NCBI GenBank assembly: GCA_963710375.1 | Contig: CAVPZX010000005.1 | Span: forward strand, 160,001 to 224,000 | DNA length: 64,000 nt | Direction of reading: 5' to 3' | Source: Nitrospirota bacterium | Lineage (GTDB): Bacteria; Nitrospirota; Thermodesulfovibrionia; Thermodesulfovibrionales; Dissulfurispiraceae | Part shown: piece after piece, positions 15,148-55,454 of the stretch | How positions within the stretch are numbered: the first letter of the stretch is position 1 | How the letters are laid out: each line of letters starts with the position of its first letter | Program-made: the position numbers and the translations under genes | Notes under the pieces: model-generated | Databases searched by the model: none | Seen by the model: only the letters and a program-made list of their open reading frames with translations | Told to the model about the DNA's origin: nothing

Positions 15148-15152
15148 GGACG

Positions 15153-15288
15153 AAAGATGGAAGGTGAGAGCGTGAGAAGTTGTGAAGGTGAGAGTAAAAC
15201 AGAAGTTGAGAAGTTGAGAAGTTGTGAGGTTGGGATTTTGCTCATCTTCGCACCTTCGCACCTTCTCACGCTCTCAACTTCCATCTTT
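15153..15288. repeat. Octamer (GAAGTTGA family) hairpin element at the lptE 5' end
   Basis: aaagatggaaggtgagagcgtgagaag... / ...cttctcacgctctcaacttccatcttt. Confidence 0.9.
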
Positions 15289-16146
15289 TGTTTCTGCTGC
15301 ATTCTTTGTTCCGGCTGCGGGTATACCATTCAAACGAGGGCCAACCTTCCCTTTGAGACCATTTCTATCGGCACGATAGAGAATAAAACATCTGAGCCCA
15401 AACTTCAGGACAGGTGTCACGTGGCATTGGCAGAGACCTTTTCCCAACACGGTTACGAGGTAAGCTCCATTGCCCGCTACAGGCTCCAGGGTGAGATATA
15501 CCGGTTCGAGTTGATCCCTACAACCGAAGTGAACCTCGCTGCGACACAATATCAGATCGTGATGAAGGGGAGCTTTAAACTTGTTGATACGGAAAGCGGC
15601 AAATCGATTCCACTTGGGGCGGACAGCCCGTTTATCACTTATTTCAACGCTAACACCACTGACCCGCTCGAGGAAATTATGACACAAAAAGAGCTCGCGG
15701 AGGCCAGCGCTATGGCAAATCTGGCGCAGACGTTAGTCAGCCTTGTTACTTACAATACTCCCAAAAATTTTGCGAGCCTGCTGTTTAAGCCTGACGATAT
15801 AAAAAATGTGGAGGGCCTTATCGTCAAGCTGAGGGATGCAAAAGACCCGCTCTCGGAATATTTACGGGACCAATTTACTCCGGACCTTCAACGCAAAATA
15901 GATGCCTATAACCAGTTCGATTATTCGGCAAAGGAGCTCAAGACTGCACTGGCCAATGCGTTAAACAGTATAATCCAGAACAAGGACATTTTTGATGAAA
16001 AGCGTTTTGCCCATGTCATGCTCAGCGATGAGACCATGCAGCTTATCAGACAGAATGCGCAAGGCGGTAATCGGGTGAAACTCAACCGGATACTTCTTGA
16101 GGAGGCGTATCCGGACGAACTGCAAAAACCGGCAGGCAATAGGTAA
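15157..16146 (+). CDS. lptE: LptE-like LPS assembly lipoprotein with a repeat-encoded N-terminus and an extra C-terminal domain
   Basis: Lipobox-like CSGC followed by GY; ENKT.EP; position directly upstream of holA. Confidence 0.7.
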   Translation: MEGESVRSCEGESKTEVEKLRSCEVGILLIFAPSHLLTLSTSIFCFCCILCSGCGYTIQTRANLPFETISIGTIENKTSEPKLQDRCHVALAETFSQHGYEVSSIARYRLQGEIYRFELIPTTEVNLAATQYQIVMKGSFKLVDTESGKSIPLGADSPFITYFNANTTDPLEEIMTQKELAEASAMANLAQTLVSLVTYNTPKNFASLLFKPDDIKNVEGLIVKLRDAKDPLSEYLRDQFTPDLQRKIDAYNQFDYSAKELKTALANALNSIIQNKDIFDEKRFAHVMLSDETMQLIRQNAQGGNRVKLNRILLEEAYPDELQKPAGNR

Positions 16147-16156
16147 TGGAAAATAT

Positions 16157-16241
16157 GAAGGTGAGAAGATGGGAAGTTGCGAAGTTGAGCAAACCGGCCT
16201 TCGTAAGTCACACCTTCACACGTTCTCAACTTCTCATCTTC
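16157..16241. repeat. Octamer hairpin element between lptE and holA
   Basis: gaaggtga gaagatgg gaagttgc gaagttga ... caccttc acacgttc tcaacttc tcatcttc. Confidence 0.9.
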
Positions 16242-16250
16242 GGATATTGA

Positions 16251-17153
16251 ATGAGCATAAAGCAATTTCATCAGGAACTTTCCAAGGGGATGCCCTCCCC
16301 GGTGTATCTCTTATACTCATCAGAAGATTTTCTGCTCTATGAGGCTATCTCCGGAATAAAAGAGCAGTGTAGGGATACAGTTGGATTTAATTTTGACGTG
16401 TACGACATTAAGTCGCCTGACGATACGATTCCGGTAGAACAGATTGTGGATATCGTGAACACGATGCCGTTTATATCCGCGCGAAGGATAGTTGTTATCA
16501 ACAACATACAGAAACTTGCCAAAAAGGATGTGCAAAAGATCGAGGCTTACCTGCTTAATCCTGCTGATACTGCGCTTTTGGTAATGCTCCATACAGGTGC
16601 ATCGCCAAAGCTTTTTAGTGCAGCGGCATCAGGAAGCATTAAGACAATTGCTCTTACAGTCCAGGAAAAGGACCTTCACCTGTGGATAAAGGAGCAGGCC
16701 AAACAGAAGAAGGTGCGCCTTACCGACAGCGCGGTCGAATATCTTATTACTATGGCCGGGACTGACCTTGGCATGCTCTCTGCAGAAATAGAAAAGCTTG
16801 CATGTTTTATCAGCGACCGTGTCATTGACGTTGCCGACCTGAAGAGCATCATCTATTCTGGAGTTGAGTATACCGCCTTTGACCTTCTTGATGCGCTTAA
16901 GAGAAAAGATGCGAAGGAGGTATTCAGGATATTTGAGAACGTCACTAAAAATCAGGAACCTCAAATGCTGCTCGGCGCTCTGAATTATTATTATGGACGG
17001 CAAGGGTACGCTTACCAGAAAAAAGATGCATCCGGGCCGGTCCAGACAGTCCGGCTCTTGCATGAGGCGGACTTTGCGATAAAGTCATCGCACAAGTATG
17101 TTATCGAAGATCTGCTTGTTAAGCTGCTTAAAACTCCGAAGATGAGAAGTTGA
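16251..17153 (+). CDS. holA: DNA polymerase III delta subunit
   Basis: PVYLL..E.FL, T.PF....R.V, EIEKL; lptE-holA-rpsT context. Confidence 0.9.
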   Translation: MSIKQFHQELSKGMPSPVYLLYSSEDFLLYEAISGIKEQCRDTVGFNFDVYDIKSPDDTIPVEQIVDIVNTMPFISARRIVVINNIQKLAKKDVQKIEAYLLNPADTALLVMLHTGASPKLFSAAASGSIKTIALTVQEKDLHLWIKEQAKQKKVRLTDSAVEYLITMAGTDLGMLSAEIEKLACFISDRVIDVADLKSIIYSGVEYTAFDLLDALKRKDAKEVFRIFENVTKNQEPQMLLGALNYYYGRQGYAYQKKDASGPVQTVRLLHEADFAIKSSHKYVIEDLLVKLLKTPKMRS

Positions 17154-17205
17154 GAAGATGTGAAGGTGTGATCTCAATTTCCCAACCTCCCAACTTCTCA
17201 CCTTC
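17138..17205. repeat. Octamer hairpin element overlapping the holA and rpsT stop codons
   Basis: gaagatga gaagttga gaagatgt gaaggtgt / tcaatttc ccaacctc ccaacttc tcaccttc. Confidence 0.9.
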
Positions 17206-22419: not shown

Positions 22420-23580
<1,161 letters not shown>

Positions 23581-37231: not shown

Positions 37232-38547
37232 TGGAGGGTTGGATGTTTAGGAGATTGGAAGGTTGGAAGCTCGGCAATTTGGCAGCTCGAAAGCTCGGTG
37301 GTTTGGCTAACCCTCTAACCCGCAAGTTCTCCAATCTTCTAATTGGTTACTGGCATAAAGGGGGGGTGGAAATTTACCGGCTTTCCGCCCCAAAAAGTCA
37401 AAGGCTTTCCGGGGGCGCCGGGCCCGCGGAAAGCAAGATCACTCTGTTTGCATCCGGAGGTCTCGACACACTTAAACCTGTCAAAGCATTCGGCAAAATA
37501 GTATTGATTGTGGGGAGAGACCTTTTTCTCCACACAAGGAAAAAGTTTCCCCCGGCATCGTTAGATGATTTGAAGAAAGCTGTAAACCTTGAAATCGGCG
37601 AGTTGTTCCCACTGAAGAGTCCCTCCTTTTTCCTCAATGTTTTTGAGAGGACCGAAGCTTACACCCTGGCTGATATATGGGCGTGGGACAGTTCTGGATA
37701 TGACAACCTGAAGCGTGTGCTCCCCTTTACCTATGTATTGCCGGAAGACATGGCCTTTATATCAGGGGAACCCGAAATCAGTGTTTTGAGCGGCTCTGCC
37801 GGCGACGCCGGTGTCTCCCATTTGCTGGCTCATTCAAAAGAAGGATTTCTCGGCATGTCGTCATTCAGAGGCCGGGTCAGCCGGAGCCACATAGAGAAGC
37901 TTCTCAAGGCGATCAGCAGTCATGCGGAAGAGGTTAAGAGGGTGAACCTTTACGGGGGAGCAGAAGCTGTTACCGCTATTAATGACCTTGGATTCCCGGT
38001 CGTGAAAAAGGAGACCAGGGGGTATCCCGCCTGCCTTGAAAATTTGAGCAGGCTCGATCTTAAACAGTTCAGTGTCCGGACAGAACCGGCTTTTATGGAA
38101 TACATTGATGTCGGCATCAGGTCCGTAATATACCTTTTTGTTGCGTATGGCATATCCCTTATTGTTGCAGGCAGGCATTATGATGCTGCAATCAGTGAAG
38201 TGAAGATAAAGACTGCAAGGCTGACTACGAGCATGTCTGCCGTAATCGTGGGGCAGAAGAAAGATTACGAGGAGGCTGCGGACGAGATGAAGGAAAAGCT
38301 GAAGGGTTGGCGTCCGCCGTTGCCTGTAATGGAGGCGTTGGCCAAAAATCTGCCTGACAAGAGCTATGTGACAAGAATGGTACTTAATGAGACCACACTG
38401 GAGTTGACACTTGCATCGAATGACCCCCTGGCGGTTGTGAAAGCCGTGGGGAGAACTGACGGAGTAAAAACAGTGAAATTGAAGGGCTCGCCTTCGAAAA
38501 ATGATAAAGGGCTTTATACCTTCTATCTTACGGTGGAACTGAAATGA
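37231..38547 (+). CDS. GspL/PilN-like assembly protein
   Basis: Cytoplasmic domain, one TM, coiled coil, LP..SYV; operon order. Confidence 0.65.
   Translation: MEGWMFRRLEGWKLGNLAARKLGGLANPLTRKFSNLLIGYWHKGGVEIYRLSAPKSQRLSGGAGPAESKITLFASGGLDTLKPVKAFGKIVLIVGRDLFLHTRKKFPPASLDDLKKAVNLEIGELFPLKSPSFFLNVFERTEAYTLADIWAWDSSGYDNLKRVLPFTYVLPEDMAFISGEPEISVLSGSAGDAGVSHLLAHSKEGFLGMSSFRGRVSRSHIEKLLKAISSHAEEVKRVNLYGGAEAVTAINDLGFPVVKKETRGYPACLENLSRLDLKQFSVRTEPAFMEYIDVGIRSVIYLFVAYGISLIVAGRHYDAAISEVKIKTARLTTSMSAVIVGQKKDYEEAADEMKEKLKGWRPPLPVMEALAKNLPDKSYVTRMVLNETTLELTLASNDPLAVVKAVGRTDGVKTVKLKGSPSKNDKGLYTFYLTVELK
37233..37341. repeat. Degenerate octamer (GGAAGCTC/GGAAGGTT) arms at the 5' end of the gspL-like gene
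   Basis: ggagggtt ggatgttt aggagatt ggaaggtt ggaagctc ggcaattt ggcagctc gaaagctc ... aaccctct..ccaatcttct. Confidence 0.6.
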
Positions 38548-38551
38548 AGAC

Positions 38552-38654
38552 AGAAGTTGAGAAGTTGCGAAGGTGAGAAGATGAGAGAAAGGATACTGCG
38601 TGAAAATGTGGGTTTGGGGTCTCAACTTCACAACTTCACAATTTCTCAACTTCT
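38552..38654. repeat. Octamer hairpin element between the gspL-like and gspM-like genes
   Basis: gaagttga gaagttgc gaaggtga gaagatga ... tcaacttc acaacttc acaatttc tcaacttc. Confidence 0.92.
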
Positions 38655-38674
38655 ATGTTTACAGCGGCGCTGAA

Positions 38675-40213: not shown

Positions 40214-42391
40214 ATGAGCAGGATATTTCAATGTATCGTGACGGTAATAATTTCTTTAGTGGTCTTTGGATGCGCTTCAACCAAAGAGGTGAAGCCTTCT
40301 GCGTCCGGGCAGGACAATCAACCGGCTGCGGCGTCTGTGACGCAAGGAGACAAAGTCCAGGAAACAAAAAATATTGAATCACTTCAGCCTGCTGAGGAAC
40401 CGAGCCAGAAGAGGCCGGACGAAGACATATTAATGCCGCAAATTAAGAAATCTCTTTATCAGAAATCGCTTCCCGCCAAAGCTGAGCGTATGCCGATAGA
40501 TCCGAAGCGTATTGTGCATGTTTCGGGGAACGTTATTCTTAATGCTGAATCCATGCCCCTTTCGGACTTTATCGTATATGCCCTTGGCGATACCCTGAGG
40601 ATAACTTTTTTCGTGGACGAGCCGGTAATGGCCATGAAAAATCCTATTACCCTCAGAATGACACAGGAAATGCCTGCGGAAAAGGTCGTTGAAGTCGTCA
40701 TAGGCTTTCTCGAGAAAAATGGTTTGGTCGTGGAGGAAAAGGGCGGGGCCCTGTATATCATGAAGCCGAAACCGCCGGCTGTCCAGTCCCCTCCGGTGGA
40801 TTTCAGGATAGGCAGGAATACCGAGGACAGCCCTGCAAACGTATTTCAGTTCGTGCCTTTCAGGCATTTGCATGGAGCGCAAGTAATGCAACTGCTTGGG
40901 GATTTGTTTAAGGATGTCAGGATACAATGGTATAACAAAGAAAACGCCCTTATGCTCAGCGGACCGGCTTCATCCATGAAAGAGATGATCGATTTTATTG
41001 ATTTTATCGATGTCCCCACGTTGAGTGATAAAAAACTCTTTTTGTTCCAGCTTACGTACTGGCAGCCTGATGATTTCATAAGACAGATTAGTGCGATATT
41101 GGAGGGAGTCGGCTATTCTATTGCAAAAGGTCCTGCCGATCCCGGTATTGAATTTATCCCAATCAAGTATCTCAATAGCATACTTATCGTGTCTCCTGAT
41201 GACGCCACGCTGAAATTCGCCCTTGACTGGAAAAGAAGACTCGATACCGCTGAGTCGGCCGGAACAGAGGAAAAGGTATTCACTTTTACCCCGCAGTATT
41301 CCAAGGCGTCGGATCTTGTGGACTCCATAAAAAAGCTGTATGGTGTGATGCCGGCGATCGCGCCGGCAAGAGGACCTCAGGGAGTGCAGGCTGCTCCTGT
41401 TGGCGCTGCTGCCCCGACTGCCACGGCTGCTGCCGCAGTCCCACTTCCGACTACTGCTTCCGTGTCTCCTGCGTCTCCTGTGTCTTCTGTGTCTTCTGCC
41501 TCAATCCCGGGGCTGAAGATTTCAGGCGACGACAGGAGAAATATTGTCGTCATCATTTCAACCCCCTCCATATTCAAGTCTGTTCTCGCTATCCTACAGG
41601 AGCTGGATAAGCCGCCTAAACAGGTGCTCATAGAGGCCATGATAGCCGAGCTGACCCTTACAGACGATCTGTCCTACGGGCTCGAATGGTACCTGCAGAC
41701 CAGGAATAAGACATCGGGCACATCGAACTCGCTTACCACCCTCGGTCAGCTAGGGCTAAACACATCCTCCGGCCTTGTATATAACTTTTTGTCTGACTCG
41801 CAGAGATTACAGGCCGTTGTGAATGCTTTTGCGCAGCAGAACAAGGTGAATATTCTTTCGACTCCTAGGATAATGGTCCTCGATAATCAGACCGCAACAT
41901 TGAATGTAGGATCTCAAGTGCCCATTTTAGGGGGCCAGACAACAACTTCCACTGTTGAAGGGTCTACTGTAAATGCCCAGGTTGTTTCATACGTCACTAC
42001 AGGAATTACCGTGAGTGTAACACCGACAATCAACACCGAAGGACTGCTTACCCTTCAAATATCTGTTACGGACAGTCAGGCGGTGCCGAATTCAACTTCT
42101 TCAATAAACAGCCCTTTGATAACCAACGACTCGCTGTCCACCAGCATTGTTGCCACGACATCGGAAACTATATTATTGGGAGGGATGATGTCGGACAGTG
42201 TGACCGACAGTGAGTCGAAAGTTCCCCTTCTCGGTGATATACCGTTGCTAGGGAACCTTTTCAAGACAAGGTCAAAGGACAAAACAAAGACTGAATTAAT
42301 AATAATGTTGACGCCCAAGATTCTGACAAGCGGCGACGAGGCAGCAAGAATCACCAATGAAATTAGAAAGAGTATTAAATGGTTGCAGTGA
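40214..42391 (+). CDS. gspD: Lipoprotein secretin
   Basis: Lipobox VFGC; LD.P.KQVLIEA, LSTP, KVPLLGDIPLLG.LF, ELII..TP. Confidence 0.93.
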   Translation: MSRIFQCIVTVIISLVVFGCASTKEVKPSASGQDNQPAAASVTQGDKVQETKNIESLQPAEEPSQKRPDEDILMPQIKKSLYQKSLPAKAERMPIDPKRIVHVSGNVILNAESMPLSDFIVYALGDTLRITFFVDEPVMAMKNPITLRMTQEMPAEKVVEVVIGFLEKNGLVVEEKGGALYIMKPKPPAVQSPPVDFRIGRNTEDSPANVFQFVPFRHLHGAQVMQLLGDLFKDVRIQWYNKENALMLSGPASSMKEMIDFIDFIDVPTLSDKKLFLFQLTYWQPDDFIRQISAILEGVGYSIAKGPADPGIEFIPIKYLNSILIVSPDDATLKFALDWKRRLDTAESAGTEEKVFTFTPQYSKASDLVDSIKKLYGVMPAIAPARGPQGVQAAPVGAAAPTATAAAAVPLPTTASVSPASPVSSVSSASIPGLKISGDDRRNIVVIISTPSIFKSVLAILQELDKPPKQVLIEAMIAELTLTDDLSYGLEWYLQTRNKTSGTSNSLTTLGQLGLNTSSGLVYNFLSDSQRLQAVVNAFAQQNKVNILSTPRIMVLDNQTATLNVGSQVPILGGQTTTSTVEGSTVNAQVVSYVTTGITVSVTPTINTEGLLTLQISVTDSQAVPNSTSSINSPLITNDSLSTSIVATTSETILLGGMMSDSVTDSESKVPLLGDIPLLGNLFKTRSKDKTKTELIIMLTPKILTSGDEAARITNEIRKSIKWLQ

Positions 42392-42433: not shown

Positions 42434-42541
42434 AACCACAGAGGCACTGAGACACAGAGAAAGCAAATGATAGCGAAAAAGGAAAAGACGTTTTCTTTCT
42501 GTATTATGGAGCATACCTCTGTGCCTCTGTGTCTCTGTGGT
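42434..42541. repeat. Octamer (CACAGAGA) hairpin element, copy 2
   Basis: Arms and internal loop both align with 18714-18822. Confidence 0.9.
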
Positions 42542-42775
42542 ATGTTTTTGCAATTGGCAAATTTGGCATCAAAATTGCTCTCTATATAAATAAAATTCAA
42601 GGGTAATAATTTTTTTAGACTCAGTGAAAAAAGGGTTGTTCTTTTTGAATGGATATGGTATATATATCATACTTTGTGTTTTCTATTATATATTTGATCG
42701 GGTTGCAACGGTACTTTAAACATCACGTCCGCGGGAGAGGATTGAGGCGTGGGGTAATAGGGCTGTATTAATCAC

Positions 42776-42804: not shown

Positions 42805-43016
42805 TAGTGCATCTTTAAAGCTTTAGGCAGAGGCGGTAAATGTTTAAAATGAAATTAATCATCGGTTGTTATTTAGGGTTAGAGTAAATGAAATTCAGTA
42901 ATCAAGGAGGTGATGAGAAAAGCCGATCCTTGGGAGAGTAAGGAAGCAGGAAGTGCGAACACTTTGCGGTTATCATCATTATTATTTATTATTTATCAAA
43001 AAAAGGAGGATTGAAA

Positions 43017-44591
43017 ATGACTAAGTTTTTAAAGGTTTCTTTTTTAGCAATGTTGATTGTTGCCGTAATGGCATTGCCGGCCTTTGCAGGCACCATTACA
43101 TTTTGGGGTTCACCTGGCGGTACAAGTGGTGCAGCTAATGTCAAATATTCAGTTGCCTTGGAGGCAATGAATGCTGCGAGAAATTTCACTATAACCAGTT
43201 CATCCGGGACAACCGGCTCCGGATACGCTAATGCGCCATTAAAAATCACCCCCGGCCAGCAATTGGCCAGCGGCTCATTGTTGACTATCACATTGGCAAA
43301 TGCCGCGTTTAATGCCGGAGCTACCGGAAGCGTACTTTTGTGCGCTGCTACCAGCGATACCGCGTCAGTAGACGTCCCTGTTGCGGCCCAGCAGCCTGCA
43401 GCAAACAGCGCAAGCTTGTCGTGGGTATTAGGTACTACAGTATCCACCGGCCAATTTCTCTTTGTGACAACGTCTGGGACAACATCTTGCAGTAACAGTA
43501 ATGCAAGCTTGAGTGTTCAGTTCCAGCCTGTCTCATCAGCAGCCTTGGCCTCGGTTTCTTATACTGTTTCCCTGAACTCAACCACGTATGACCAAAAATC
43601 GGCTGTCAATTTCGCTAACTTTGCTAGGGAGTTCACAACAGCTTACGCAAATTTACCTTCTACAATTGATTATACGACGAACAGCGCTTCAAACGGAGCC
43701 CATTTTGTTGTAGGTACAGGAGCTAATGCTGCCAACGCGGGTACGGCGAATATTGCTCGCGGCACGGTAGATTTTAGTGCTGAGGCCGTCGGCGCCACCG
43801 GTGCCAGCCTTTCAGTAGCAGGTATATTGTCCCTTCAGGATTCAGCATCCTGGCAGGGTGTGAAGGATGCTTATGTGCTTGGTAGTGCTGGTGGTGGTAA
43901 TAATTGTGCCGCCGCTGGGCCTGGAGCTAATAACGCGATAGTACAAGGCGCTGCAAATCTTGGCACTGGAACAGTGAACCTGGCTGTATCTTCAGCCGCA
44001 TTTAATGGTGCGGCGTCCTATGCTGCGGTTGCGTGCGTTGATGTGCTGGGCAATACTGTTCTTCAGTCCAGGTCGATCAAGGGATTCTACACTGTCAACG
44101 GTGGAGTCGCTGATGTTGATTCCGCGACACTCCTTATGACCTGGTCACCTAACGGTTATCAGGCAATAATTCCGTATATTAACGGATCCTCGACATTCGA
44201 CACGATATGCACCATCAGTAACCAGGGCGCAACTGCTGCACCTGCGACTGCTACTTTACTTTCAGCAGAGAGCATAGGCGCGGCTGGAGGATCTATTCCA
44301 ACAGGTGCACAGGGTATTAGCCTGGGTACAGTGCCGGCTAATGGACTAATACGTGTAGACTTTACTTCATCAATTACGCCTTACACGTATAGCGGTGGTG
44401 TTGAGACCGCAGGCACGGCAGTTGCGATTCCTGGCGTCCAGGGTAATGACAGGATGTCTGTCATACTGAATGTCGGAGCAGGTGTAACTGCGATTCAGAC
44501 AAATTGCATTCAAACGGATACCCTTGCTGGTGTCAAGAGAAATGTGCCGGTGCTGACGCAAACCAGTGGCACAGTTCCATGGCAGCAGTAA
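43017..44591 (+). CDS. Secreted Ala/Thr/Ser/Gly/Val-rich protein, probable S-layer protein
   Basis: Sec signal ending AFA, few charged residues, AGGAGG RBS, own promoter and terminator, follows the T2SS operon. Confidence 0.6.
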   Translation: MTKFLKVSFLAMLIVAVMALPAFAGTITFWGSPGGTSGAANVKYSVALEAMNAARNFTITSSSGTTGSGYANAPLKITPGQQLASGSLLTITLANAAFNAGATGSVLLCAATSDTASVDVPVAAQQPAANSASLSWVLGTTVSTGQFLFVTTSGTTSCSNSNASLSVQFQPVSSAALASVSYTVSLNSTTYDQKSAVNFANFAREFTTAYANLPSTIDYTTNSASNGAHFVVGTGANAANAGTANIARGTVDFSAEAVGATGASLSVAGILSLQDSASWQGVKDAYVLGSAGGGNNCAAAGPGANNAIVQGAANLGTGTVNLAVSSAAFNGAASYAAVACVDVLGNTVLQSRSIKGFYTVNGGVADVDSATLLMTWSPNGYQAIIPYINGSSTFDTICTISNQGATAAPATATLLSAESIGAAGGSIPTGAQGISLGTVPANGLIRVDFTSSITPYTYSGGVETAGTAVAIPGVQGNDRMSVILNVGAGVTAIQTNCIQTDTLAGVKRNVPVLTQTSGTVPWQQ

Positions 44592-45230: not shown

Positions 45231-47141
45231 ATGTCTAAATCAAAAGAAAAATCAAAAGAAAACCACTCGACAGTAATGCGAAAGGAGATGGCCTCAGAGG
45301 GGACCGCAGACAGTATTGTCGTCCATGAATATCCTTCCGTCGTAGAGTGGTTTAAGACCGTTGCAACCAACATAACCAACAACTGGTTCATTATCGGACT
45401 GGCGATATTCGCGGTATTTGTTGCTTTCATGTTTTATTATCCATCGGTGGGTGGCGACGAAGACATTTGGTTTCATATCAGATATGGATATCACTTTGTC
45501 CATAACATGACATGGAAGATAAACCACGCACAGTTCAACTGGATCCCTTTTGAACCTAATTTCAAGTATGTGACCTGGATAGGAAGCTCCATACTTTATA
45601 TATTCTATGCTCTGATGTCGCATTACGGGCTCTATCTGCTCCAATACATAGTCATAGGCTCTATTGTGGGCTGCTTCCTTTATTTCCTTAAAAAAACAGC
45701 ATACCGCTTCGATATTACAAGTCTGCTGGCAATGCTGGCTGTCCTTCTGGTTTTGAACCTCAAATACCTCTATATCAAGCCGGATATGTTCAGCGGATTG
45801 TTGTTTACCGTTGCCTGCATGCTTTACTATAAGGTCAAGGAAACCGGAAACTGGAGACTGTTTTATGTCTATCCGCCGATGTTCCTCCTCTGGGTTAATA
45901 CTCATGGCGGCTTCATAGTGGGACTATTCTTTATAAGCGCCGCACTCGGATGCGAATTCGTTAATTCCTTCATATTCAGGAATGCGAGACTCGACAACAA
46001 AAGCCTTCTGCATTTTGCGTTAAACGTTGTCCTTAGCTATGCCGTTATCGGTATAAACCCTGAAGGCTATGGCTACTTTACAGGCATAATCAGCGATTTT
46101 TTCTCTCCGGGGATGAAAACGACAGAGGCAATCATAGCTGAATATGGCAGCATGTGGGGCACTCTTTTGCTTAAACCTGCAGGTTTCAGGTTTAAATTTG
46201 CAGCATTTTCAATGCTCGCTATGCTTGTAGTGTTTATCGGAATATGCATTTATCTTATCAAGAAGAAGAAATTCTTTGATATGCCGTCCGTCTTTCTTGT
46301 TGTCTTTTTCTATATCTTTGCAATGTCCATTGTTCGCGCATCCCAATATTATCCCCTTATCTGGTTCTTTGCCTTTTTTTACGTTTATAAGCGGTTCGAT
46401 GCCGTAAAGATCAAAGGCGTCTTCAACTTTATATCCCTGTTAATAATATTCATGTTGTGCTTTAGAATAGTCAATTTGGCGCTTGTTGATTATGACTCGA
46501 TTGCATGGTTTGGCACCAACTGGGAGGAAAGCTACCCTGTCAAGGAAGTGCAATACATAAAGAAGGCGAACCCTCCGGGCAATTTGTGGAATGATTACTT
46601 GACGGGAGGCTATCTCTTATGGGCACTGTATCCCAAATACAAGGTCTTCGTCGATCCGCGCTACGGCGGATACATGGCAAACTTTATGCCCACGGCCGAG
46701 GAGTATAAAGATGCTAAAGGACTGGAGGCGTATACAAAGAGGTTCCCCTTCAAGGTGGCCATCGTGGCTTATCATGAAACTCAGATTATCGAATGGCTTC
46801 TGAAAGCGGATTGGAGGATTGCCTTCCTGGACAAGAACGCCCTGGTAATTGTCAATAAGTCGGTGATCCCCGAGCTGTCGAAAGCTGCCCTGGAAGAGGA
46901 CGTCAGCACCAATAGATTTTTGAATGTCGATAACCCCAACATTCTCAGGACATTGTTTAATTTCTATGTAAACCTTGGTCCAAGTTTCGGAAGGGAGATT
47001 ATAGAAATATACCAGAGGAACGTCAGAACAATCTACAGGAACAGGGATTCCGATCTGAACAACATGCGGAATTTTCTTGAACAGAAAGAGGCCGAGATAG
47101 CTGCGCAGAAAGGCAAAGGCAAGACTGGACAAACAAAATGA
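45231..47141 (+). CDS. Polytopic membrane protein, GT-C-like
   Basis: D.WFH...G, LW.N.HGGF, GGYL.W, FVD.R. Confidence 0.65.
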   Translation: MSKSKEKSKENHSTVMRKEMASEGTADSIVVHEYPSVVEWFKTVATNITNNWFIIGLAIFAVFVAFMFYYPSVGGDEDIWFHIRYGYHFVHNMTWKINHAQFNWIPFEPNFKYVTWIGSSILYIFYALMSHYGLYLLQYIVIGSIVGCFLYFLKKTAYRFDITSLLAMLAVLLVLNLKYLYIKPDMFSGLLFTVACMLYYKVKETGNWRLFYVYPPMFLLWVNTHGGFIVGLFFISAALGCEFVNSFIFRNARLDNKSLLHFALNVVLSYAVIGINPEGYGYFTGIISDFFSPGMKTTEAIIAEYGSMWGTLLLKPAGFRFKFAAFSMLAMLVVFIGICIYLIKKKKFFDMPSVFLVVFFYIFAMSIVRASQYYPLIWFFAFFYVYKRFDAVKIKGVFNFISLLIIFMLCFRIVNLALVDYDSIAWFGTNWEESYPVKEVQYIKKANPPGNLWNDYLTGGYLLWALYPKYKVFVDPRYGGYMANFMPTAEEYKDAKGLEAYTKRFPFKVAIVAYHETQIIEWLLKADWRIAFLDKNALVIVNKSVIPELSKAALEEDVSTNRFLNVDNPNILRTLFNFYVNLGPSFGREIIEIYQRNVRTIYRNRDSDLNNMRNFLEQKEAEIAAQKGKGKTGQTK

Positions 47142-47914
47142 AGGTTGTTATTTTAGCAGGGGGGCTTGGCACACGTCTGAGCGAAGAGACTGATATAAAA
47201 CCCAAGCCGATGGTCGAGATAGGCGGAAAGCCTATCCTCTGGCATATCATGAAGATTTATTCTCACTATGGTTTCAATGATTTCATCATCTGCCTCGGCT
47301 ATAAAGGCTATGTCATAAAGGAATACTTCGCCAACTATTTCCTTCATCAGTCCGATGTTACTATAGATTTGAGCGTCAACAAGCTGGAGGTCCATAACTG
47401 TAAGGCAGAGCCCTGGAGGATTACCCTTATAGAGACAGGATTGAACACGAATACAGGAGGCAGGATAAAGAGAATAAAAGATTATGTCGGCGAAGAGACC
47501 TTTATGCTTACCTACGGAGATGGCGTTGCTGATGTAGATATAGGTGGACTCCTGGAGTTTCACAAATCTCACGACAAGGCAGCTACAATCACCTCAGTTC
47601 AGCCTACTGGCAGATACGGTGCATTGGAACTTGATGAAAAGAGTAGAGTGACAAATTTTCAGGAAAAACCGCAAGGCGATGGGGCGTGGGTAAACGGCGG
47701 CTTTTTTGTATTGGAGCCTGAGGTATTTGATTATATATCCGGGGATGAAATCATATGGGAAAGGGAACCGCTCGAATATTTAGCGAGTCACGGTCAGCTC
47801 GATGCATATAAACACCAGGGATTCTGGAAATGTATGGATACCCTTCGCGACAAGACAGAGTTGGAAACCCTCTGGAGTTCCCGAAACGCACCCTGGAAGA
47901 AATGGAACGACTAA
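47138..47914 (+). CDS. rfbF: Glucose-1-phosphate cytidylyltransferase
   Basis: LAGGLGTRLSEET..PKPM, TGGR, TYGDG, FW.CMDTLRD. Confidence 0.96.
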   Translation: MKVVILAGGLGTRLSEETDIKPKPMVEIGGKPILWHIMKIYSHYGFNDFIICLGYKGYVIKEYFANYFLHQSDVTIDLSVNKLEVHNCKAEPWRITLIETGLNTNTGGRIKRIKDYVGEETFMLTYGDGVADVDIGGLLEFHKSHDKAATITSVQPTGRYGALELDEKSRVTNFQEKPQGDGAWVNGGFFVLEPEVFDYISGDEIIWEREPLEYLASHGQLDAYKHQGFWKCMDTLRDKTELETLWSSRNAPWKKWND

Positions 47915-47918
47915 ATAT

Positions 47919-48014
47919 GAAGTTGAGAAATTGAGAAGATGTGAAGATGAGAAAAAGAAATGTAAGCCTGATTTGTTGTCGCGCACCTTCTCACCTTCTC
48001 AGCTTCCCATCTTC
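47919..48014. repeat. Octamer hairpin element directly upstream of the four-helix-bundle gene
   Basis: gaagttga gaaattga gaagatgt gaagatga ... gcaccttc tcaccttc tcagcttc ccatcttc. Confidence 0.92.
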
Positions 48015-48028
48015 GGATCGCCGAAGGT

Positions 48029-48433
48029 GTGATGGTGGGCAATAGTCAGAAAATAAAAAGTGTTAGGGATTTGGATGTTTATAAGATGGCTTTCAATGCG
48101 GCAATGGACATTTGGCAGATAACAAACGGTTTTCCCAAAGAAGAAAAATATTCTCTTGTAGATCAAATAAGGCGTTCTTCAAGATCTGTATGTTCAAATC
48201 TTGCAGAAGCGTGGCGAAAGAGGCGATATAAAGCCGTGTTCAAGAATAAGTTGACTGATGCTATGCAAGAGGCTTCTGAAACGCAGACATGGCTGGAGTT
48301 CAGTGTTGCTTGTAAATATGTTGATCAAAATAAATTTGATGACTTTGATCAAAAATATGAACATATATTAGCTATGTTGAATAATATGGACTTGAAAGCT
48401 GAATCCTTCTGCTTCTCAACTTCTGATAAATAA
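48029..48433 (+). CDS. Four helix bundle protein (23S rRNA IVP / TIGR02436-like)
   Basis: DL.VY, FP.EE.YSL.DQIRRSSRSV..N.AE.W, E..ET.TWL. Confidence 0.93.
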   Translation: MMVGNSQKIKSVRDLDVYKMAFNAAMDIWQITNGFPKEEKYSLVDQIRRSSRSVCSNLAEAWRKRRYKAVFKNKLTDAMQEASETQTWLEFSVACKYVDQNKFDDFDQKYEHILAMLNNMDLKAESFCFSTSDK

Positions 48434-49638
48434 TGTTTAGGGACGTATATAGAGGTAAGCAAGTATTAATCACTGGTCACACGGGATTCAAAGGCTCTTG
48501 GCTTGCCCTGTGGCTCAGAGAGTTAGGAGCGAATATAATCGGTTATTCCCTTGATCCACCTACAAACCCCAATCATTTTGATTTGCTAGCCTCTTCTCAG
48601 GTTCTCACCTTCTCATCTTCTCAACTTCCCAACTTCATCTCTATTTTCGGAGATATACGGGATGTAAAGAAGCTGAATCAGACCTTTCAGAACTATAAGC
48701 CTGATATAGTCTTCCACCTCGCTGCACAACCTCTCGTCAGGTATTCATATAAACATCCGCTCGATACATTTGAGACAAATGTGATAGGGACAATAAATGT
48801 TCTTGAAGCTTGCAGACAGACTGAATCAGTCAGGGCAGTAGTAAATATAACGAGCGACAAGTGCTATGAAAACAAAGAATGGGTATGGGGCTATCGTGAG
48901 AGTGACCCGTTTGGCGGTTACGACCCCTACAGCGCATCAAAAAGTTGCGCAGAGCTTGTGACTAACTGTTACAGGCGCTCTTTCTTTATAACTGAAACTG
49001 AGAAGTTGAGAAGGTGTGAAGGTGAGAGTAAAGCCGAAGGACTCACAACTTCTCAACTTCTCAACTTCACAACTTCAGTCCTTTTAGCCAGCGCAAGAGC
49101 GGGCAATGTCATAGGCGGCGGAGATTGGGCAGCGGACAGATTGATTCCCGACATTATGAGGGCGGTCAGCCGGAATAAGAAGGTTGTTATCAGAAATCCC
49201 AAGTCAACCCGTCCCTGGCAGCATGTGCTGGAGCCGTTGTCAGGTTATCTGGCGCTTGGGCAGAAGCTCTTGGAAGGGAAATCGGAATTTGCCGATGGGT
49301 GGAATTTTGGGCCTGATGATGAAAGCAACATATGTGTTGAAGAAGTTGCAGAAAAGATGACCAGCTTCTGGCATAAAATTGGTTACCAACGCAAACCATT
49401 TAAACATCCAAGCCTCCGGCCATCCGACCCTCATGAGGCTGGTCTGTTAAAACTTGACTGCTCGAAAGCCCATTCAAGGCTTGAGTGGAAACCTGTCTGG
49501 GATATTAAGAAAACGCTTGTAATGACCGCTCAATGGTATAAAGAGTTTTACGAACGTGATGGAATAATGAGTCAGAAGGATTTGGATGAGTATATTCTGA
49601 ATGCGAAGGAAAAAGGTTTGCGTTGGGCAGTTGATTGA
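48433..49638 (+). CDS. rfbG: CDP-glucose 4,6-dehydratase with in-frame repeat inserts
   Basis: TGHTGFKGSWL, HLAAQPLV, YSASK, RAGNVIGGGDW, RPWQHVLEP. Confidence 0.96.
   Translation: MFRDVYRGKQVLITGHTGFKGSWLALWLRELGANIIGYSLDPPTNPNHFDLLASSQVLTFSSSQLPNFISIFGDIRDVKKLNQTFQNYKPDIVFHLAAQPLVRYSYKHPLDTFETNVIGTINVLEACRQTESVRAVVNITSDKCYENKEWVWGYRESDPFGGYDPYSASKSCAELVTNCYRRSFFITETEKLRRCEGESKAEGLTTSQLLNFTTSVLLASARAGNVIGGGDWAADRLIPDIMRAVSRNKKVVIRNPKSTRPWQHVLEPLSGYLALGQKLLEGKSEFADGWNFGPDDESNICVEEVAEKMTSFWHKIGYQRKPFKHPSLRPSDPHEAGLLKLDCSKAHSRLEWKPVWDIKKTLVMTAQWYKEFYERDGIMSQKDLDEYILNAKEKGLRWAVD
48591..48636. repeat. Single octamer arm in frame in rfbG (SSQVLTFSSSQLPNF)
   Basis: tcaggttc tcaccttc tcatcttc tcaacttc ccaacttc. 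Confidence 0.9.
48991..49079. repeat. Octamer hairpin in frame in rfbG (TETEKLRRCEGE..TTSQLLNFTTS)
   Basis: actgaaactgagaagttgagaaggtgtgaaggtgagagt / actcacaacttctcaacttctcaacttcacaacttcagt. Confidence 0.95.
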
Positions 49639-49662
49639 GCAGGTTTGTCGGAAGACTCCTAC

Positions 49663-51108
49663 ATGGAAAGAAGAGAACAACTAAAACAGGAAATATTTGA
49701 GAGAATAAGGGCATTTTATCAGCTTGTGCATGAGACATCCCACAATGCAGAGTTTGTTGCAGGCAAAAGTCGCATAAACTATGCAGGCCGGGTATTTGAT
49801 GAAGAAGAGATGATTAATCTTGTCGATAGTTCCCTTGATTTCTGGCTTACAACAGGCAAATATGCCGAAAGGTTTGAAAAAGAATTTGCAGATTTCCTTG
49901 GAGTGAAATATTGCTCTCTTGTCAATTCAGGGTCTTCAGCTAATCTCCTCGCGTTTATGGCGTTAACATCTCCGAAGCTCGGTGATAGAAGCATTCAGAG
50001 GGGCAATGAGGTCATAACAGTAGCAGCAGGTTTCCCAACCACAGTCGCTCCCATCATTCAGTATGGCGCTGTGCCGGTATTTGTTGATGTTACGCTGCCG
50101 GCATACAACATAGATTGTTCGCAGCTCGAAAATGCACTATCAGATAAAACAAAGGCTGTAATGGTCGCGCATACCCTCGGCAATCCCTTCGATATCCGGA
50201 CGGTAAAAACGTTCTGCGATAAACATAATCTCTGGCTCATCGAGGATAACTGCGACGCTCTTGGCAGTAAATACCGAAGGTGGGAAGTTGAGAAGGTGAG
50301 AAGTTGTGAACGTGAGAAGGCAGGCCCAACTTCACAACTTCACAACTTCCCACCTTCGGAGCTTTACGGCTACACCGGGACTTTCGGGCATATTGGAACG
50401 TCGAGTTTTTATCCGCCCCATCATATGACTATGGGAGAAGGCGGCGCTGTTTATACGAACGATATTCAGCTCAAAGGGATAATAGATTCTTTCCGTGACT
50501 GGGGCAGGGACTGCTGGTGTGTGTCGGGTAAAGACGATACATGCAAAAAACGCTTTAAATGGCAGCTCGGAGAACTTCCTTACGGATATGATCACAAATA
50601 TATCTATTCCCATTTCGGGTATAACTTAAAGGTTACCGACATGCAGGCGGCTATAGGCTGTGCGCAACTCGAAAAGCTGCCCTTTTTTATTGAAGCAAGA
50701 AAGAAAAACTGGAGTCTTCTGAGGGACGGGCTGCATGACCTTTCAGATAAGTTTATCCTGCCTGAGCCTACTGCGAATTCAGAGCCATCCTGGTTTGGGT
50801 TCCTGTTGACTGTGAAGGAGAGCGCGGGTTTTACGAGGGATGAGATAGTGAATTATCTTGAATCAAATAACATCCAGACACGTATGCTCTTTGCAGGAAA
50901 TATACTGAAGCATCCCTGCTTCGATGAAATGAGAAAAACCGGCCACGGTTTCCGTGTCATTAGGGACTTACCGGTAACTGACCGCATAATGCGCGACAGT
51001 TTTTGGGTTGGGGTCTATCCGGGGATGAAAGAAGAGGCGATCGAATATGTCATGCAAAAGATAAAAGAGTATGCAAGACATGAACAATCGATTCCCGGTT
51101 TAGGGTAA
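49663..51108 (+). CDS. rfbH: CDP-4-keto-6-deoxyglucose 3-dehydrase (RfbH/DdhC) with an in-frame repeat insert
   Basis: NSGSSANL, EDNCDALG, SFYPPHH.T.GEGG (His in place of the PLP Lys), RDCWC..G.D.TC. Confidence 0.95.
   Translation: MERREQLKQEIFERIRAFYQLVHETSHNAEFVAGKSRINYAGRVFDEEEMINLVDSSLDFWLTTGKYAERFEKEFADFLGVKYCSLVNSGSSANLLAFMALTSPKLGDRSIQRGNEVITVAAGFPTTVAPIIQYGAVPVFVDVTLPAYNIDCSQLENALSDKTKAVMVAHTLGNPFDIRTVKTFCDKHNLWLIEDNCDALGSKYRRWEVEKVRSCEREKAGPTSQLHNFPPSELYGYTGTFGHIGTSSFYPPHHMTMGEGGAVYTNDIQLKGIIDSFRDWGRDCWCVSGKDDTCKKRFKWQLGELPYGYDHKYIYSHFGYNLKVTDMQAAIGCAQLEKLPFFIEARKKNWSLLRDGLHDLSDKFILPEPTANSEPSWFGFLLTVKESAGFTRDEIVNYLESNNIQTRMLFAGNILKHPCFDEMRKTGHGFRVIRDLPVTDRIMRDSFWVGVYPGMKEEAIEYVMQKIKEYARHEQSIPGLG
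50274..50359. repeat. Octamer hairpin in frame in rfbH
   Basis: ccgaaggtgggaagttg... / ...caacttcccaccttcgg; outer 17 bp perfectly complementary. Confidence 0.95.
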
Positions 51109-53199
51109 TATTTCATTCAGCAATTGCCGGGTTTTTTGGTCATCCGGCTTTATCTTTAACCTTGTCATCAATTGAATGCGCGCATTTTCTATAATATCCG
51201 GTCTCAGGCGCAGGGCAGTTTCGAATTCATTTTTGGCCTTGTCAAGTCTGTCGCTGTCGTAATAAACAAGGCCAAGATTAAAATGTGCTTCTGCGTAATC
51301 GGGCGCAAGTTTAATGGCAATCAGATACTGCTCAATAGATTTGTCAGGCATGTTGATGGCATGATAGGCAATGCCGAGATTATTATGTGCCTCAGCATAA
51401 TCAGGCTTGAGTTTAATGGCAATGATATATTGCTCAATAGCATTGTCAAGCATGTTGCGACTTTTATAAAAATTACCAAGTCTGGCATGTGCATTTGCGT
51501 AACGGGGGAATCTTTTAACTGTATCTTCCCACATTTTTTTGCTGTCTCCATATAGATTGTTCTGCAAATGAGCTGCGACTGACAGAATGCTTATAATAAG
51601 GGCGAGCGTCACTAGTATCACATTGCCGGCTTTCTGTGAACGAATTTTTTCTTTCAGCAGAAATACCCCCGTAACTGTGCAAATGATTACCCCGACCGAG
51701 GGCAGATACATTCGATACGTTTCAATAAGCCTCGGCGTAGGTATAATGCTCGATTCAACTGAAAGGGTGATAAAGAACCACAATATACCGAAACCCATCA
51801 AACGAAAAGCAGGACTAAGGGCAGAGGACTGAGAGGCGAGGACTGAGGACTGAGGACTGAGAGACGAGGACTGAGAGGCGAGGACTGAGGACTGAGGACT
51901 GAGAGACGAGGACTGAGAGGCGAGGACTGAGTTTTCGTCTTCGCGCTTTGCCCTCAGTCCTTTGCCCTTAGTCCTCAGTCCTGGACCCTCTTCCTTTGGC
52001 CCTTTCCACTCAGTCCTCAGTCCTTCGCCCTCAGTCCTCAGTCCTCGCCTCTCTTTTTTCTGCACTAAATAAATCCCCAGTCCAAATAGCGCTGAGAGAA
52101 ACACAAATGAAACGGATACCTGCGGTTGAAAAAAAGACTTAAACACAGGGTACTCATAATTGAGTTCCAGGTTTGCCGGGAAAAACAGCATTCGCAGGTA
52201 AGTGACAATGACCCTGAACTGGGTGAAAAAATACTCTCCCCGCGAGTAGTCCCAGGTGAATCCGGCCATATATGAGCCCGGGTCAATAAGGCTGGGATTA
52301 ATCAGTTGTGTGCCGCGTACTTCGGTCACTGTCGGCATGCTCATAATAGTCAGAGGTATGATGCAAAGTGAAAGCAATAATGGAGCAAGAACGAGCATCC
52401 TCTTCTTAATGCCGCCATTAAAAAAACAAAACTCGTACAACGTTATCACAAAGGGCAGAGTAAACGCATTCTCCTTTGTTTTCATTGCCAGGACCGCTGA
52501 AAGAAGGGATATGGCGTACATAGTCCGGCGCCGGGCTTTATGATGGTCAGGAGCCTCCAATCTGAACTTAATATATGCTGTGAGGGAAAGGAGATAGAAA
52601 AAAGCGGCGAGAGAGGCATAACGTTGCATGACATACGTAACCGCCGCTGTCTGCAGCGGGTGGACGGCAAACAGAGCGGCGGAGAAGAAGGCAATCACTG
52701 CCGGATTGCCTGAACTTGAGAAATTGAGAACTTGTGAAGGTGTGCCCTTTGCCCTATGCCCTATGCCTTTCATGTAAGGTGTTCTGAATGTCAATAGAAC
52801 AAGCAAATAAACCAGGATTGTATTGGCGATATGAATGGCAATATTGACAATATGGTAGCCGGTCACCGATAAACCGTTTATACGGTAGTTGAGCGCAAAG
52901 GTGAGATGCGAGATGTAGCGGGATATGAAAAAACGGTAATTCTCAAACCCTTGAGCTGTTGAGGGGTGAAGGAAATAATTAAGGTCCTTGATAATAGGCT
53001 CGTTAACAATATGCATCTCTTCATCCCACTGAAATGGGACATTCAAGGCATTGGAGTAAATGATCAGAATAAGCAGAGACAGACAAGCGATATGCACAAA
53101 GGAGTTATATGTCAATGACAGCGGACTGAACGATGCATGTGCAGGGGGAAGGTCATTGTGACGGATCAGCTTATTTGTTTTCTTACCCTTGTTTTTCAT
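51100..53199 (-). CDS. TMTC-like GT-C + TPR protein, paralog 2
   Basis: Same motifs as 26326-28050; TPRs. Confidence 0.75.
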   Translation of the reverse strand: MKNKGKKTNKLIRHNDLPPAHASFSPLSLTYNSFVHIACLSLLILIIYSNALNVPFQWDEEMHIVNEPIIKDLNYFLHPSTAQGFENYRFFISRYISHLTFALNYRINGLSVTGYHIVNIAIHIANTILVYLLVLLTFRTPYMKGIGHRAKGTPSQVLNFSSSGNPAVIAFFSAALFAVHPLQTAAVTYVMQRYASLAAFFYLLSLTAYIKFRLEAPDHHKARRRTMYAISLLSAVLAMKTKENAFTLPFVITLYEFCFFNGGIKKRMLVLAPLLLSLCIIPLTIMSMPTVTEVRGTQLINPSLIDPGSYMAGFTWDYSRGEYFFTQFRVIVTYLRMLFFPANLELNYEYPVFKSFFQPQVSVSFVFLSALFGLGIYLVQKKERRGLRTEGEGLRTEWKGPKEEGPGLRTKGKGLRAKREDENSVLASQSSSLSPQSSVLASQSSSLSPQSSVLASQSSALSPAFRLMGFGILWFFITLSVESSIIPTPRLIETYRMYLPSVGVIICTVTGVFLLKEKIRSQKAGNVILVTLALIISILSVAAHLQNNLYGDSKKMWEDTVKRFPRYANAHARLGNFYKSRNMLDNAIEQYIIAIKLKPDYAEAHNNLGIAYHAINMPDKSIEQYLIAIKLAPDYAEAHFNLGLVYYDSDRLDKAKNEFETALRLRPDIIENARIQLMTRLKIKPDDQKTRQLLNEILP
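51811..52053. repeat. Heptamer (GGACTGA) hairpin in frame in paralog 2
   Basis: (ggactga)n ... (tcagtcc)n; encodes GLRTE.. and SPQSSVL.. Confidence 0.95.
52712..52767. repeat. Composite octamer + heptamer insert in frame in paralog 2
   Basis: gaacttga gaaattga gaacttgt gaaggtgt followed by gcccttt gccctat gccctat gcc. Confidence 0.85.
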
Positions 53200-54285
53200 A
53201 AAAGATCCCTGACCGTTTCAGCGTGAGATTGCATTCAATAACTGACGGGCTATCTGGTCATCAGGCTTTATCTTTAATCTCGCTATCAACTCTCTGCGCG
53301 CATTTTCCAGTTGTCCCATATTATAGTAGAGGACTCCGAGATTAAAATGAGCTGTTTCATTATCCGGTTGGAGGCGTATGACAGTTTGTAATTCATTCAC
53401 GGCCTTGTCAGGCATGTTGAGGGACTGATAAAGAATAGCGAGATTATTGTGCGCTTCCACATAGTTGGGCTTCTCCTGTATTGCGGCCAGATAGTGTTCA
53501 GTTGCCTTGCCAGACATGCCCTGATCTTTATAGACATTGGCTAGATTATAATGCGCCTCAGGGTAATCAGGCTTCAGATTAATGGCAGTCTGAAACTCTT
53601 TTATAGCCTTGTCAGGCATGTTGAGGGCCTGATAAACAGCTCCCAGATTATTATACGCTTCTATAAAATCGGGTTTTAGATTAATGGCAGTCAGAAACTC
53701 TTTTATAGCCTTGTCAGGCATTTTGAGGGCCTGATCATAGAGGACGCCAAGATTGTAATGCGCCTTCCAGTGCCCAGGGGCAAGACTTATTGCAGTCAGA
53801 TATTCCTTTAAAGCAGCATCGGGCATACCGAGGTCTTGATAGCTGTTGCCGAGACCGAGATGCGCTTCAGTGGAATCAGGATTAATTTTCAAGGCAAGCT
53901 GAAACTGTTCCGCAGCCTTGTCCGACATGCGATGGTGTCGGTAGGCCAACCCAAGATTATAATGCACTCTTTCTTTTGCAGGGAATTTTAACGCGTCTTC
54001 TTTCCATAACTTGACTTCGTCTCTCCACATATCATTGCGCATATATGTAGCAACTGACAGTACGCCTGCAGCAAGTGCAAGAATGGTTACTATCACCCTA
54101 CCGGCTTTTGGGGAACGCAGATTTTCTTTCAGCAGAAATGCACCGGTAACAACGCAAACAAATATCCCCATTGAAGGCAGATACACGCGGTGTTCAAAAA
54201 TCACATCGGCGATGGGTATGATGCTCGACTCCACTGAGAGAGTGATGAAAAACCACAATATCCCGAAACCCATCAACTTAAAGGC

Positions 54286-55310: not shown

Positions 55311-55454
55311 GACTTTATATATGTCACTAATGAAAGGAGATAAAAAAATGAAGCGAGGGACGCAAGCCTCTGCACTATATAAGTGACCGCCTGAGTTTGG
55401 ATAGGATGCACCGCAAACAAGACAGCAGAGAAGAAGGCGATCAGCCCGGAATCG

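Follow-up and report, generated by a model that had tools for sequence, protein, structure and literature searches.

A four-helix-bundle gene between rfbF and rfbG of a Nitrospirota genome is a worn copy of a repeat-armed cassette

RESULTS

A four-helix-bundle gene lies between rfbF and rfbG

The stretch of DNA analysed here, which we call the window, comprises 64,000 nucleotides (G000:C5:160001-224000) and has its nearest relatives in the Nitrospirota. It holds rfbF, an open reading frame of 133 amino acids, rfbG and rfbH in a single row (Table 1), where the three rfb genes all score above their NCBIfam cut-offs and the stop codon of the 133-aa frame overlaps the ATG of rfbG. The site of this gene is the rfbF/rfbG junction and not a helix of 23S or 16S rRNA, and the sole Rfam match in the window is a tRNA gene at 22114-22196 on the minus strand. 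On the 5' side of the rfb genes are a secretin-like ORF (40139-42391) and a 526-aa ORF with a signal peptide (43011-44591), both named from sequence only.

TABLE 1 Genes, arms and inserts of the rfb locus, and further octamer elements of the window
Feature	Position	Strand	Basis or comparison
Gene-less octamer hairpin	15150..15291	.	Heptamer hairpins in G057 and G061, decayed arms in G027 and G006
Gene-less octamer hairpin inside heptamer-arm remnant	16150..16248	.	
Gene-less octamer hairpin	17138..17205	.	Hexamer in G061, heptamer in G006, another octamer in G057
Lone purine arm, octamer family	22998..23029	+	
Gene-less octamer hairpin	38547..38659	.	Octamer variants in G037, G057 and G061
rfbF, glucose-1-phosphate cytidylyltransferase, host gene 5' of the insertion site	47138..47914	+	TIGR02623, 449 bits (cut-off 300)
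Purine arm R1: GAAGNTGN units and A-rich inner end; begins 5 bases past the rfbF stop	47919..47956	+	Homologous to the 5' cassette arm in L001-L003
Pyrimidine arm Y1, terminal CTTCGG; pairs with R1 into a gene-less hairpin	47983..48016	+	No counterpart here in L001-L003
Worn purine arm R2: CCGAAG end and 2-3 degenerate units; overlaps the start codon	48021..48042	+	
Four-helix-bundle gene (PF05635/TIGR02436), 133 aa from ATG; GTG 48029 is an alternative start	48032..48433	+	ORF, HMM, fold
Remnant 3' arm Y2: F-C-F codons and one octamer unit	48407..48424	+	24 bases shorter than in L001-L003
rfbG, CDP-glucose 4,6-dehydratase, three in-frame insert sites	48433..49638	+	TIGR02622, 489 bits; alignment
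rfbG site 1: single pyrimidine arm, in frame	48598..48636	+	Alignment; 36 bases more than closest empty orthologues
rfbG site 2: full hairpin, in frame	48991..49079	+	Alignment
rfbG site 3: decayed arm, in frame	49395..49425	+	Alignment; 18 bases more than L083/L084
rfbH, aminotransferase-family gene	49645..51108	+	NF011936, 745 bits
rfbH site: full hairpin, in frame, CCGAAG...CTTCGG ends	50274..50359	+	

The gene product scores far above the cut-offs of the family models (TIGR02436, 103.6 bits against 24; PF05635, 115 bits against 33.8), and its predicted structure (pLDDT 94.5) consists of four long helices (15-31, 36-62, 67-93 and 99-121). The fold matches 2GSC (TM 0.81) and also 2RLD and, more weakly, the Avd protein 4DWL (TM 0.73, 9% identity). 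The preliminary description of this DNA had pointed to a structural relation of the family to Avd of diversity-generating retroelements (DGRs), and this relation holds at the level of the fold. We nevertheless rejected the identification as a DGR Avd: the protein stays below the cut-offs of both Avd models (NF033474, 27.4 of 80; PF22296, 25.4 of 40), the reverse transcriptase model PF00078 has no match in the whole genome, and the neighbours are rfb genes. By homology with its solved relatives, the protein likely forms a homopentameric ring, and we infer that it binds its cognate repeat units; it is only mildly basic (pI 8.4).

The arms around the window copy are worn

The full hairpin that had been noticed at 47919-48014 is real, since it folds at -46.5 kcal/mol (z = -5.8) and none of 200 shuffles was as good. 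Equally real is the further unit 3' of it, CCGAAGGTGTGA at 48021-48032, which provides the GTG (48029) and ATG (48032) starts, and the worn arm R2 likely holds the ribosome-binding site. Of the inverse arm described at 48405-48424, one true unit remains (48416-48423), whereas the rest consists of codons for the conserved C-terminal F-C-F of the clade. The proposal that the gene sits as cargo in the loop of an element does not hold as stated for the window copy itself, where the bracket is weak. Here, R1 pairs with its partner Y1 at -32.9 kcal/mol as opposed to -20.9 kcal/mol with the gene end, the short arms beside the gene reach only -11.0 kcal/mol, and the duplex between the upstream and downstream flanks has a z score of +0.4. 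The bracket around the window copy is thus worn, but the proposal does describe three orthologous loci, L001, L002 and L003, whose stems enclose the gene.

In these three loci, the junction is occupied by the same gene, flanked by full inverted arms, and the gene-enclosing stems fold at -45, -66 and -72 kcal/mol, respectively. Relative to them, the window copy has a 3' arm that is 24 bases short and, upstream, an additional pyrimidine arm. A match to rfbG was found in 14 of the 61 genomes of the family (an upstream rfbF is lacking in L084 and L085; L082 and L086 are duplicates of L001 and L002, so that each pair entered the count a single time). In the loci of eight relatives nothing lies between rfbF and rfbG, which bears out the statement that the two genes are normally adjacent, and at the same junction L093 carries an internally deleted gene with arms. 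The presence of a full-armed gene in three orthologous loci together with an uninserted junction in eight leads us to conclude that the gene is a cassette. Two changes of the cassette label are required on the rfbG tree, and a single change suffices in 0% of 200 bootstrap trees; the rfbF tree is compatible with a single cassette origin. Contigs from eight DNA sequencing runs contained no joint that removes the cassette and have no bearing on expression or excision; the joints that they did contain were short-sided or linked octamer arms, and we attributed them to other copies or organisms. Purifying selection acts on the four-helix-bundle gene, with dN/dS values of 0.06-0.08 between the window gene and L001-L003 and of 0.02-0.12 in 11 of 13 pairs, the other two being saturated.

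Each paralog has its own repeat unit

Six paralogs in the genome score above the cut-off, and all six are armed with inverted repeat arrays, the flanking repeats that the preliminary description had proposed to look for; each has its own unit. The arm-gene-arm design with the gene as cargo also holds family-wide, given an inverted-arm score of at least 12 in 122 of 138 family loci, compared with 30 of 138 in direct orientation. A 166-kb segment of a single contig (G000:C5:208000-373800) contains five of the six paralogs. Among 78 close homologues with enough flanking sequence, the arrays have a period of 8 in 60 of 64 cases upstream and 58 of 63 downstream, and a GAAG core is present in 37 of the 48 loci with at least 61% identity, against 2 of the 30 that fall below. 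A flank duplex better than all displaced controls was seen in only 33 of 77 homologous loci.

Repeat unit length tracks the protein tree. On an 81-row tree (every fourth of 80 homologous loci, plus L001 and L002), the unit period requires 11 changes, compared with a shuffled mean of 33.7, and none of 49 same-genome pairs has a common unit. A subset of 50 of the 80 loci gave 28 of 35 against 1 of 15, figures that are biased, since the subset was chosen after the flanks had been seen, and that are not our main evidence. The linkage of unit and clade could by itself reflect co-inheritance, with the arms travelling with the gene. Cassette arms match their own partner better than the arms of other cassettes (23.4 vs 17.2, p = 0.0002), and a corresponding excess occurs in gene-less (orphan) hairpins of the GTGAANN type, so that some pairing or conversion acts on the arms.

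In-frame inserts in rfbG and rfbH

A dense run of in-frame octamer inserts had been reported directly downstream in rfbG and rfbH. This run is real (octamer inserts at 48605-48636, 48991-49079 and 50274-50359), and its arms are the only octamer arms of the window that are this tightly clustered. The reading frame is kept in all four coding inserts, as expected if the inserts are translated, and both insert length and unit at each site differ among orthologues. At rfbG site 1, L003 carries a different octamer unit; at site 2, other units or single arms occur in L001, L002, L003 and L083; and at site 3, where the window has a decayed arm, L001 and L003 have a clear octamer arm. L001 also has a different variant at both rfbG site 2 and the rfbH site.

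As evidence for cis-action, the location of this run just 3' of the gene is weak. Eight octamer loci lie within 50 kb of the gene, with 0.72 expected, and permutation of the pairing between gene and repeat family yielded p = 0.017 at 5 kb and p = 0.11-0.27 at 10-50 kb; the clustering is mostly not family-specific. Extra sites at homologous loci number 6 upstream and 8 downstream. We therefore rejected cis-acting local spread as a general rule, the region being rich in all repeat families. On the minus strand at 51100-58091, four genes for TPR-containing membrane proteins hold long in-frame arrays of the AGGACTG family (array peptides SPQSSVL and RTEDQGL), whose cognate paralog is about 55 kb away at C5:269654.

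Gene-less hairpins throughout the genome

Periodic arrays number 771 in the genome as opposed to 89 in the shuffled control. We counted 136 gene-less hairpins of six families, all of them with terminal inverted repeats, and in all 95 two-arm loci the purine arm comes first. Their loops, 3 to 174 bases long, are for the most part unrelated, the first half being A-rich and the second T-rich. Gene sequence is kept in a single one of the 136, a gutted cassette at G000:C5:278304-278457 in which AGGACTG arms enclose ~20 codons from the start of a four-helix-bundle gene; these 61 bases are 88.5% identical to the 5' end of the cognate paralog, the intact copy of which lies 8.7 kb off. The idea that empty hairpins are non-autonomous forms of the gene-bearing element is supported by this one gutted copy and by the deleted gene of L093, but the remaining loops are heterogeneous. 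Loop motifs common to 5, 4 and 3 hairpins at separate loci, across contigs, indicate that some hairpins were copied from one another, and hairpins with a common loop differ in arm order. We considered and rejected the copying of one arm by fold-back: octamer and hexamer arms are mirrored no better within than between hairpins, octamer orphan arms matching their own partners no better than the arms of other hairpins. A small mirroring excess is found only in GTGAANN hairpins and in the nearest flank bases.

Several further elements deserve mention. Two identical 154-base hexamer hairpins with identical flanks (C2:686562 and C2:1070193) are probably part of a larger duplication. A CACAGAG-type hairpin lies at about 42435-42545; units of this type occur beside GxxExxY genes, and the cognate gene was not found, TIGR04256 and PF13366 having no match in the genome. 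Repeat families for which no paralog was assigned (AATGTTG, AAGCAGT, AATTACG, AATCGGAG and others) are possibly fossils of lost genes.

Such hairpins might be non-autonomous elements akin to MITEs that are mobilized as a unit by a transposase or recombinase whose gene lies elsewhere, so that the four-helix-bundle gene would be a passenger or an accessory end-binding factor. We regard this as quite improbable. The inward-facing terminal arrays with their recurrent CCGAAG/CTTCGG end are what such an element would show, as are the gutted copy and the loop motifs found across contigs. However, a target-site duplication is absent (observed repeat lengths equal those of permuted flanks), the loops vary widely in length and are mostly unrelated, copies with a common loop differ in the order of their arms, and cassette-oriented bracketing of other gene types was found for none of 3081 called genes by a test so strict that it recovered only 2 of the 6 paralogs.

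A different possibility is that the cassette is an intervening sequence of the rRNA type placed in mRNA, whose RNA stem would be cut by RNase III or bound by the protein and would control operon expression, the element spreading via RNA. In 61 of 87 co-directional junctions the hairpin starts at most 15 bases past the upstream stop codon, yet 18 hairpins lie between divergent genes. A crude call by longest ORF places the gene in the orientation of both its neighbours at 41 of 69 loci. The intervening sequence of Coxiella is alike in build, with tandem heptamers in a terminal stem that is cut by RNase III (available text of PMC4990558), the stability of the L002 and L003 arms would suit such a stem, and RNA is what Avd binds (available text of 10.1101/2023.10.23.563531). 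Even so, we consider this reading unlikely. As a proxy for selection on RNA, which is our own and not a published criterion, we compared G·U with A·C mismatches on the transcribed strand: the ratio was 146:153 in orphan hairpins and 186:200 in cassettes, whereas tRNA acceptor stems gave 17:2 (a terminator control, at 4:0, is tiny). G·U is thus not above A·C in either class. Moreover, convergent gene ends are not enriched (16 of 121 intergenic hairpins vs 224 of 1629 gaps), for which reason we also rejected a role as terminators. The frame kept by all four coding inserts, as if translated, a reverse transcriptase search without a match in the genome, and a window gene that is intact and under selection although no stem encloses it likewise argue against an RNA element.

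Different repeat families re-use the same junctions

The gene-less octamer hairpins at 15150, 16150 and 17138 of the window occupy junctions that carry hairpins with other units in congeners (Table 1). At the 16150 junction, for instance, G027, G037 and G061 have full heptamer hairpins, while G006 is empty. A comparison over 0.8 Mb from three congeners extends this pattern: junctions that bear a hairpin in G000 are occupied in 31 of 36 cases in G057 (10 of 93 at other junctions), 17 of 21 in G061 (4 of 43) and 4 of 13 in G027 (2 of 41). Because the automatic label of same or different unit over-calls "different," we counted only differences in unit length, which are present at 13 of 31, 6 of 17 and 2 of 4 co-occupied junctions, respectively. 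Long junctions that are unoccupied in G000 are occupied in G057 in 5 of 27 cases, and co-occupancy can come in part from ancestral filling of tolerant junctions. A switch from 7 to 8 bases across a whole two-armed array would seem to need replacement rather than point drift. The region at 17510-17680 holds a non-tandem palindromic repeat of ~170 bases with 22 BLAST matches in the genome and no Rfam match; its junction has a heptamer hairpin in G057 and G037 and is nearly empty in G027.

Another reading sees in the protein a host-useful, repeat-binding regulator that carries its own operator arms, with hairpins that arise by host slippage or gene conversion and are, or resemble, its binding sites. 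The strong purifying selection, the overlap of arms with start codons and ribosome-binding regions, and the persistence of repeats in genomes without the gene would all fit, and a regulatory role has been proposed for the TAACTGA repeats of Beggiatoaceae in the available text of PMC4679880. Yet a given junction holds different unit families in different congeners, in many cases with another unit length, which a stable regulon would not do, and this switching of families means that slippage alone is insufficient. Since arms also land in enzyme loops and broken or deleted copies exist (L093), we think a regulator of this kind rather improbable.

Gene presence and repeat counts correlate imperfectly

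The preliminary description had called for a comparison of gene and hairpin counts across genomes, and gene presence indeed correlates with genome-wide repeat counts. A strict octamer pattern matched 40, 53 and 30 times in three genomes of the family whose gene is at least 84% identical, and 0-3 times in the remaining 58 of 61 (3 in the genome with the deleted copy L093; 3, 1 and 1 in three others; 0 in 54). Those three octamer-rich genomes are congeners with a common insertion. Two genomes with distant genes of the clade (62% and 50% identical) had zero matches. In a phylum sample of 250 further genomes, at least 10 matches were found in 9 of 18 genomes bearing the gene at 60% identity or more, compared with 6 of 232 others, and within one family in 9 of 18 with the gene vs 5 of 36 without (p = 0.008), where both the 60% and the 10-match cut-offs were fixed after the data had been seen and related genomes are not independent.

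The exceptions run in both directions. Fewer than 10 matches were found in 9 of the 18 gene-bearing genomes of the phylum sample, five of these having zero, and repeat-rich genomes that lack the gene, which had been named as evidence against a link, do exist in part: 6 of the 15 octamer-rich genomes of this sample have no gene of the clade. Five of these six were profile-searched again and yielded genes of other clades only, with other units in the 12 inspected of 16 matches. For the hexamer paralog, 5 of 6 genomes with the gene and 4 of 54 without it had at least 4 matches, and the four hexamer-rich genomes without the gene are congeners of gene carriers. Taken together, the gene and the gene-less repeats co-occur, if imperfectly.

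DISCUSSION

A possible mechanism of repeat writing

The re-use of orthologous junctions, the missing G·U bias, the missing target duplication and a genome search without a match to reverse transcriptase jointly point to DNA-level rewriting of existing sites rather than to an RNA stem or classical transposition. We see about an even chance that the cassette is a selfish DNA element whose protein helps to write its own repeat into existing hairpin sites. Under this scheme, the protein, predicted by homology to be ring-forming, would bind its cognate repeat units and aid host repair or recombination enzymes in writing units into old hairpin sites. In the chemistry that we prefer, the process would start where the loop of an old hairpin is broken or gapped; each free 3' end would then be extended by copying purine-strand units of another arm or cassette, and the extended ends would be rejoined. 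Now and then, the whole gene-bearing form would be copied in, whereby the element would be renewed. Such a model would yield the purine-arm-first order, independently composed arms, old units on the outside and single-arm states, and it would also account for the absent duplications and the re-use of sites.

Searches of the 98.8% complete genome for partner enzymes gave no match to reverse transcriptase (PF00078), GxxExxY (TIGR04256/PF13366), Ku (PF02735), SbcD (TIGR00619) or AEP primase (PF01896). With no catalyst among the enzymes searched, the proposed break has no named cause. SbcD was our first candidate for a hairpin cutter and was rejected on account of its absence: it has no match in G000, as opposed to 13 of 14 control genomes. 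This absence might let palindromes persist.

A bolder reading is that the cassettes represent a new class of mobile element without nuclease, recombinase or reverse transcriptase of its own, in which a small ring protein reads its own 6-9-base unit and drives the rewriting of arms. We hold this to be conceivable but doubtful. If true, rival repeat families would displace one another at shared junctions and in shared protein loops, and one system would have produced both the 23S rRNA intervening sequences and the short tandem repeats, so far unexplained, of many bacteria. More generally, the locus ties the function of the 23S intervening-sequence protein family to the origin of bacterial short tandem repeats of 6-8 bases. 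The re-use of sites by different families implies targeting unlike that of classical transposition, and the re-use of in-frame enzyme loops implies a continuing supply of variable peptide inserts. Because the six paralogs of this one genome all differ in their units, a six-by-six binding matrix is predicted, and a small scaffold with the predicted clade-specific repeat recognition would be a useful tool.

Comparison with known systems

Short tandem repeats comparable to those described here include the cyanobacterial STRR heptamers. The TAACTGA repeats of Beggiatoaceae, cyanobacteria and Bacteroidetes are similar in that short tandem units lie near gene ends, that only the stop-free strand persists inside ORFs and that their origin is unexplained; unlike ours, they are mostly direct repeats (available text of PMC4679880, the main text of which does not contain "four helix," "intervening" or "23S"). 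MITEs and Rickettsia palindromic elements resemble the hairpins as short inverted-repeat elements, some of which are fused in frame into enzymes (available text of PMC10969869). In contrast to both, the hairpins have no target duplication, their arms consist of tandem 6-9-base units and their sites are re-used; unlike the Rickettsia elements, they share no conserved ~150-base element, internal sequence or peptide.

At the protein level, Xcc0516 (2GSC) and BT_0352 (2RLD) are the best sequence and fold matches, with five chains per entry, and 2GSC is described as a homopentamer in the available text of PMC4990558; at 23-28% identity, however, the protein studied here belongs to a different clade, with an 8-base unit. 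Avd of DGRs has the same fold, and the last avd codons likewise lie within a structured nucleic-acid element. In the accessible parts of two reports, the Avd pentamer binds a stem-loop via the same residues of different protomers (10.1101/2023.10.23.563531), RNA is the only Avd ligand described (10.1101/2023.10.23.563531, PMC10053308) and PF05635 is noted as Avd-like (PMC10053308). The differences are that our protein misses both Avd cut-offs, is 9% identical and comes from a genome in which the search for a reverse transcriptase gave no match.

Among known systems, the ORF-bearing intervening sequence of 23S rRNA comes closest. In Coxiella burnetii, such a sequence in helix 45 encodes S23p between terminal repeats that contain tandem heptamers, and RNase III cuts it; ORF-bearing examples are also known from Leptospira, Brucella and Xanthomonas, and the mobility of intervening sequences with the aid of their ORF is treated as an open hypothesis (available text of PMC4990558). 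The literature searched, subscription journals and supplements aside, holds no description of such cassettes outside rRNA, so that a widespread cassette system appears to have gone undescribed there, of which the window copy is a worn example. What sets the present elements apart from those in rRNA is their position between protein genes, their six unit families, the purifying selection and the occurrence of gene-less hairpins genome-wide and in coding sequence with no RNA wobble signature. What the two have in common, as far as the text of PMC4990558 describes it, is the same protein family inside terminal inverted repeats, weak in the window copy, that include short tandem units in variable copy number.
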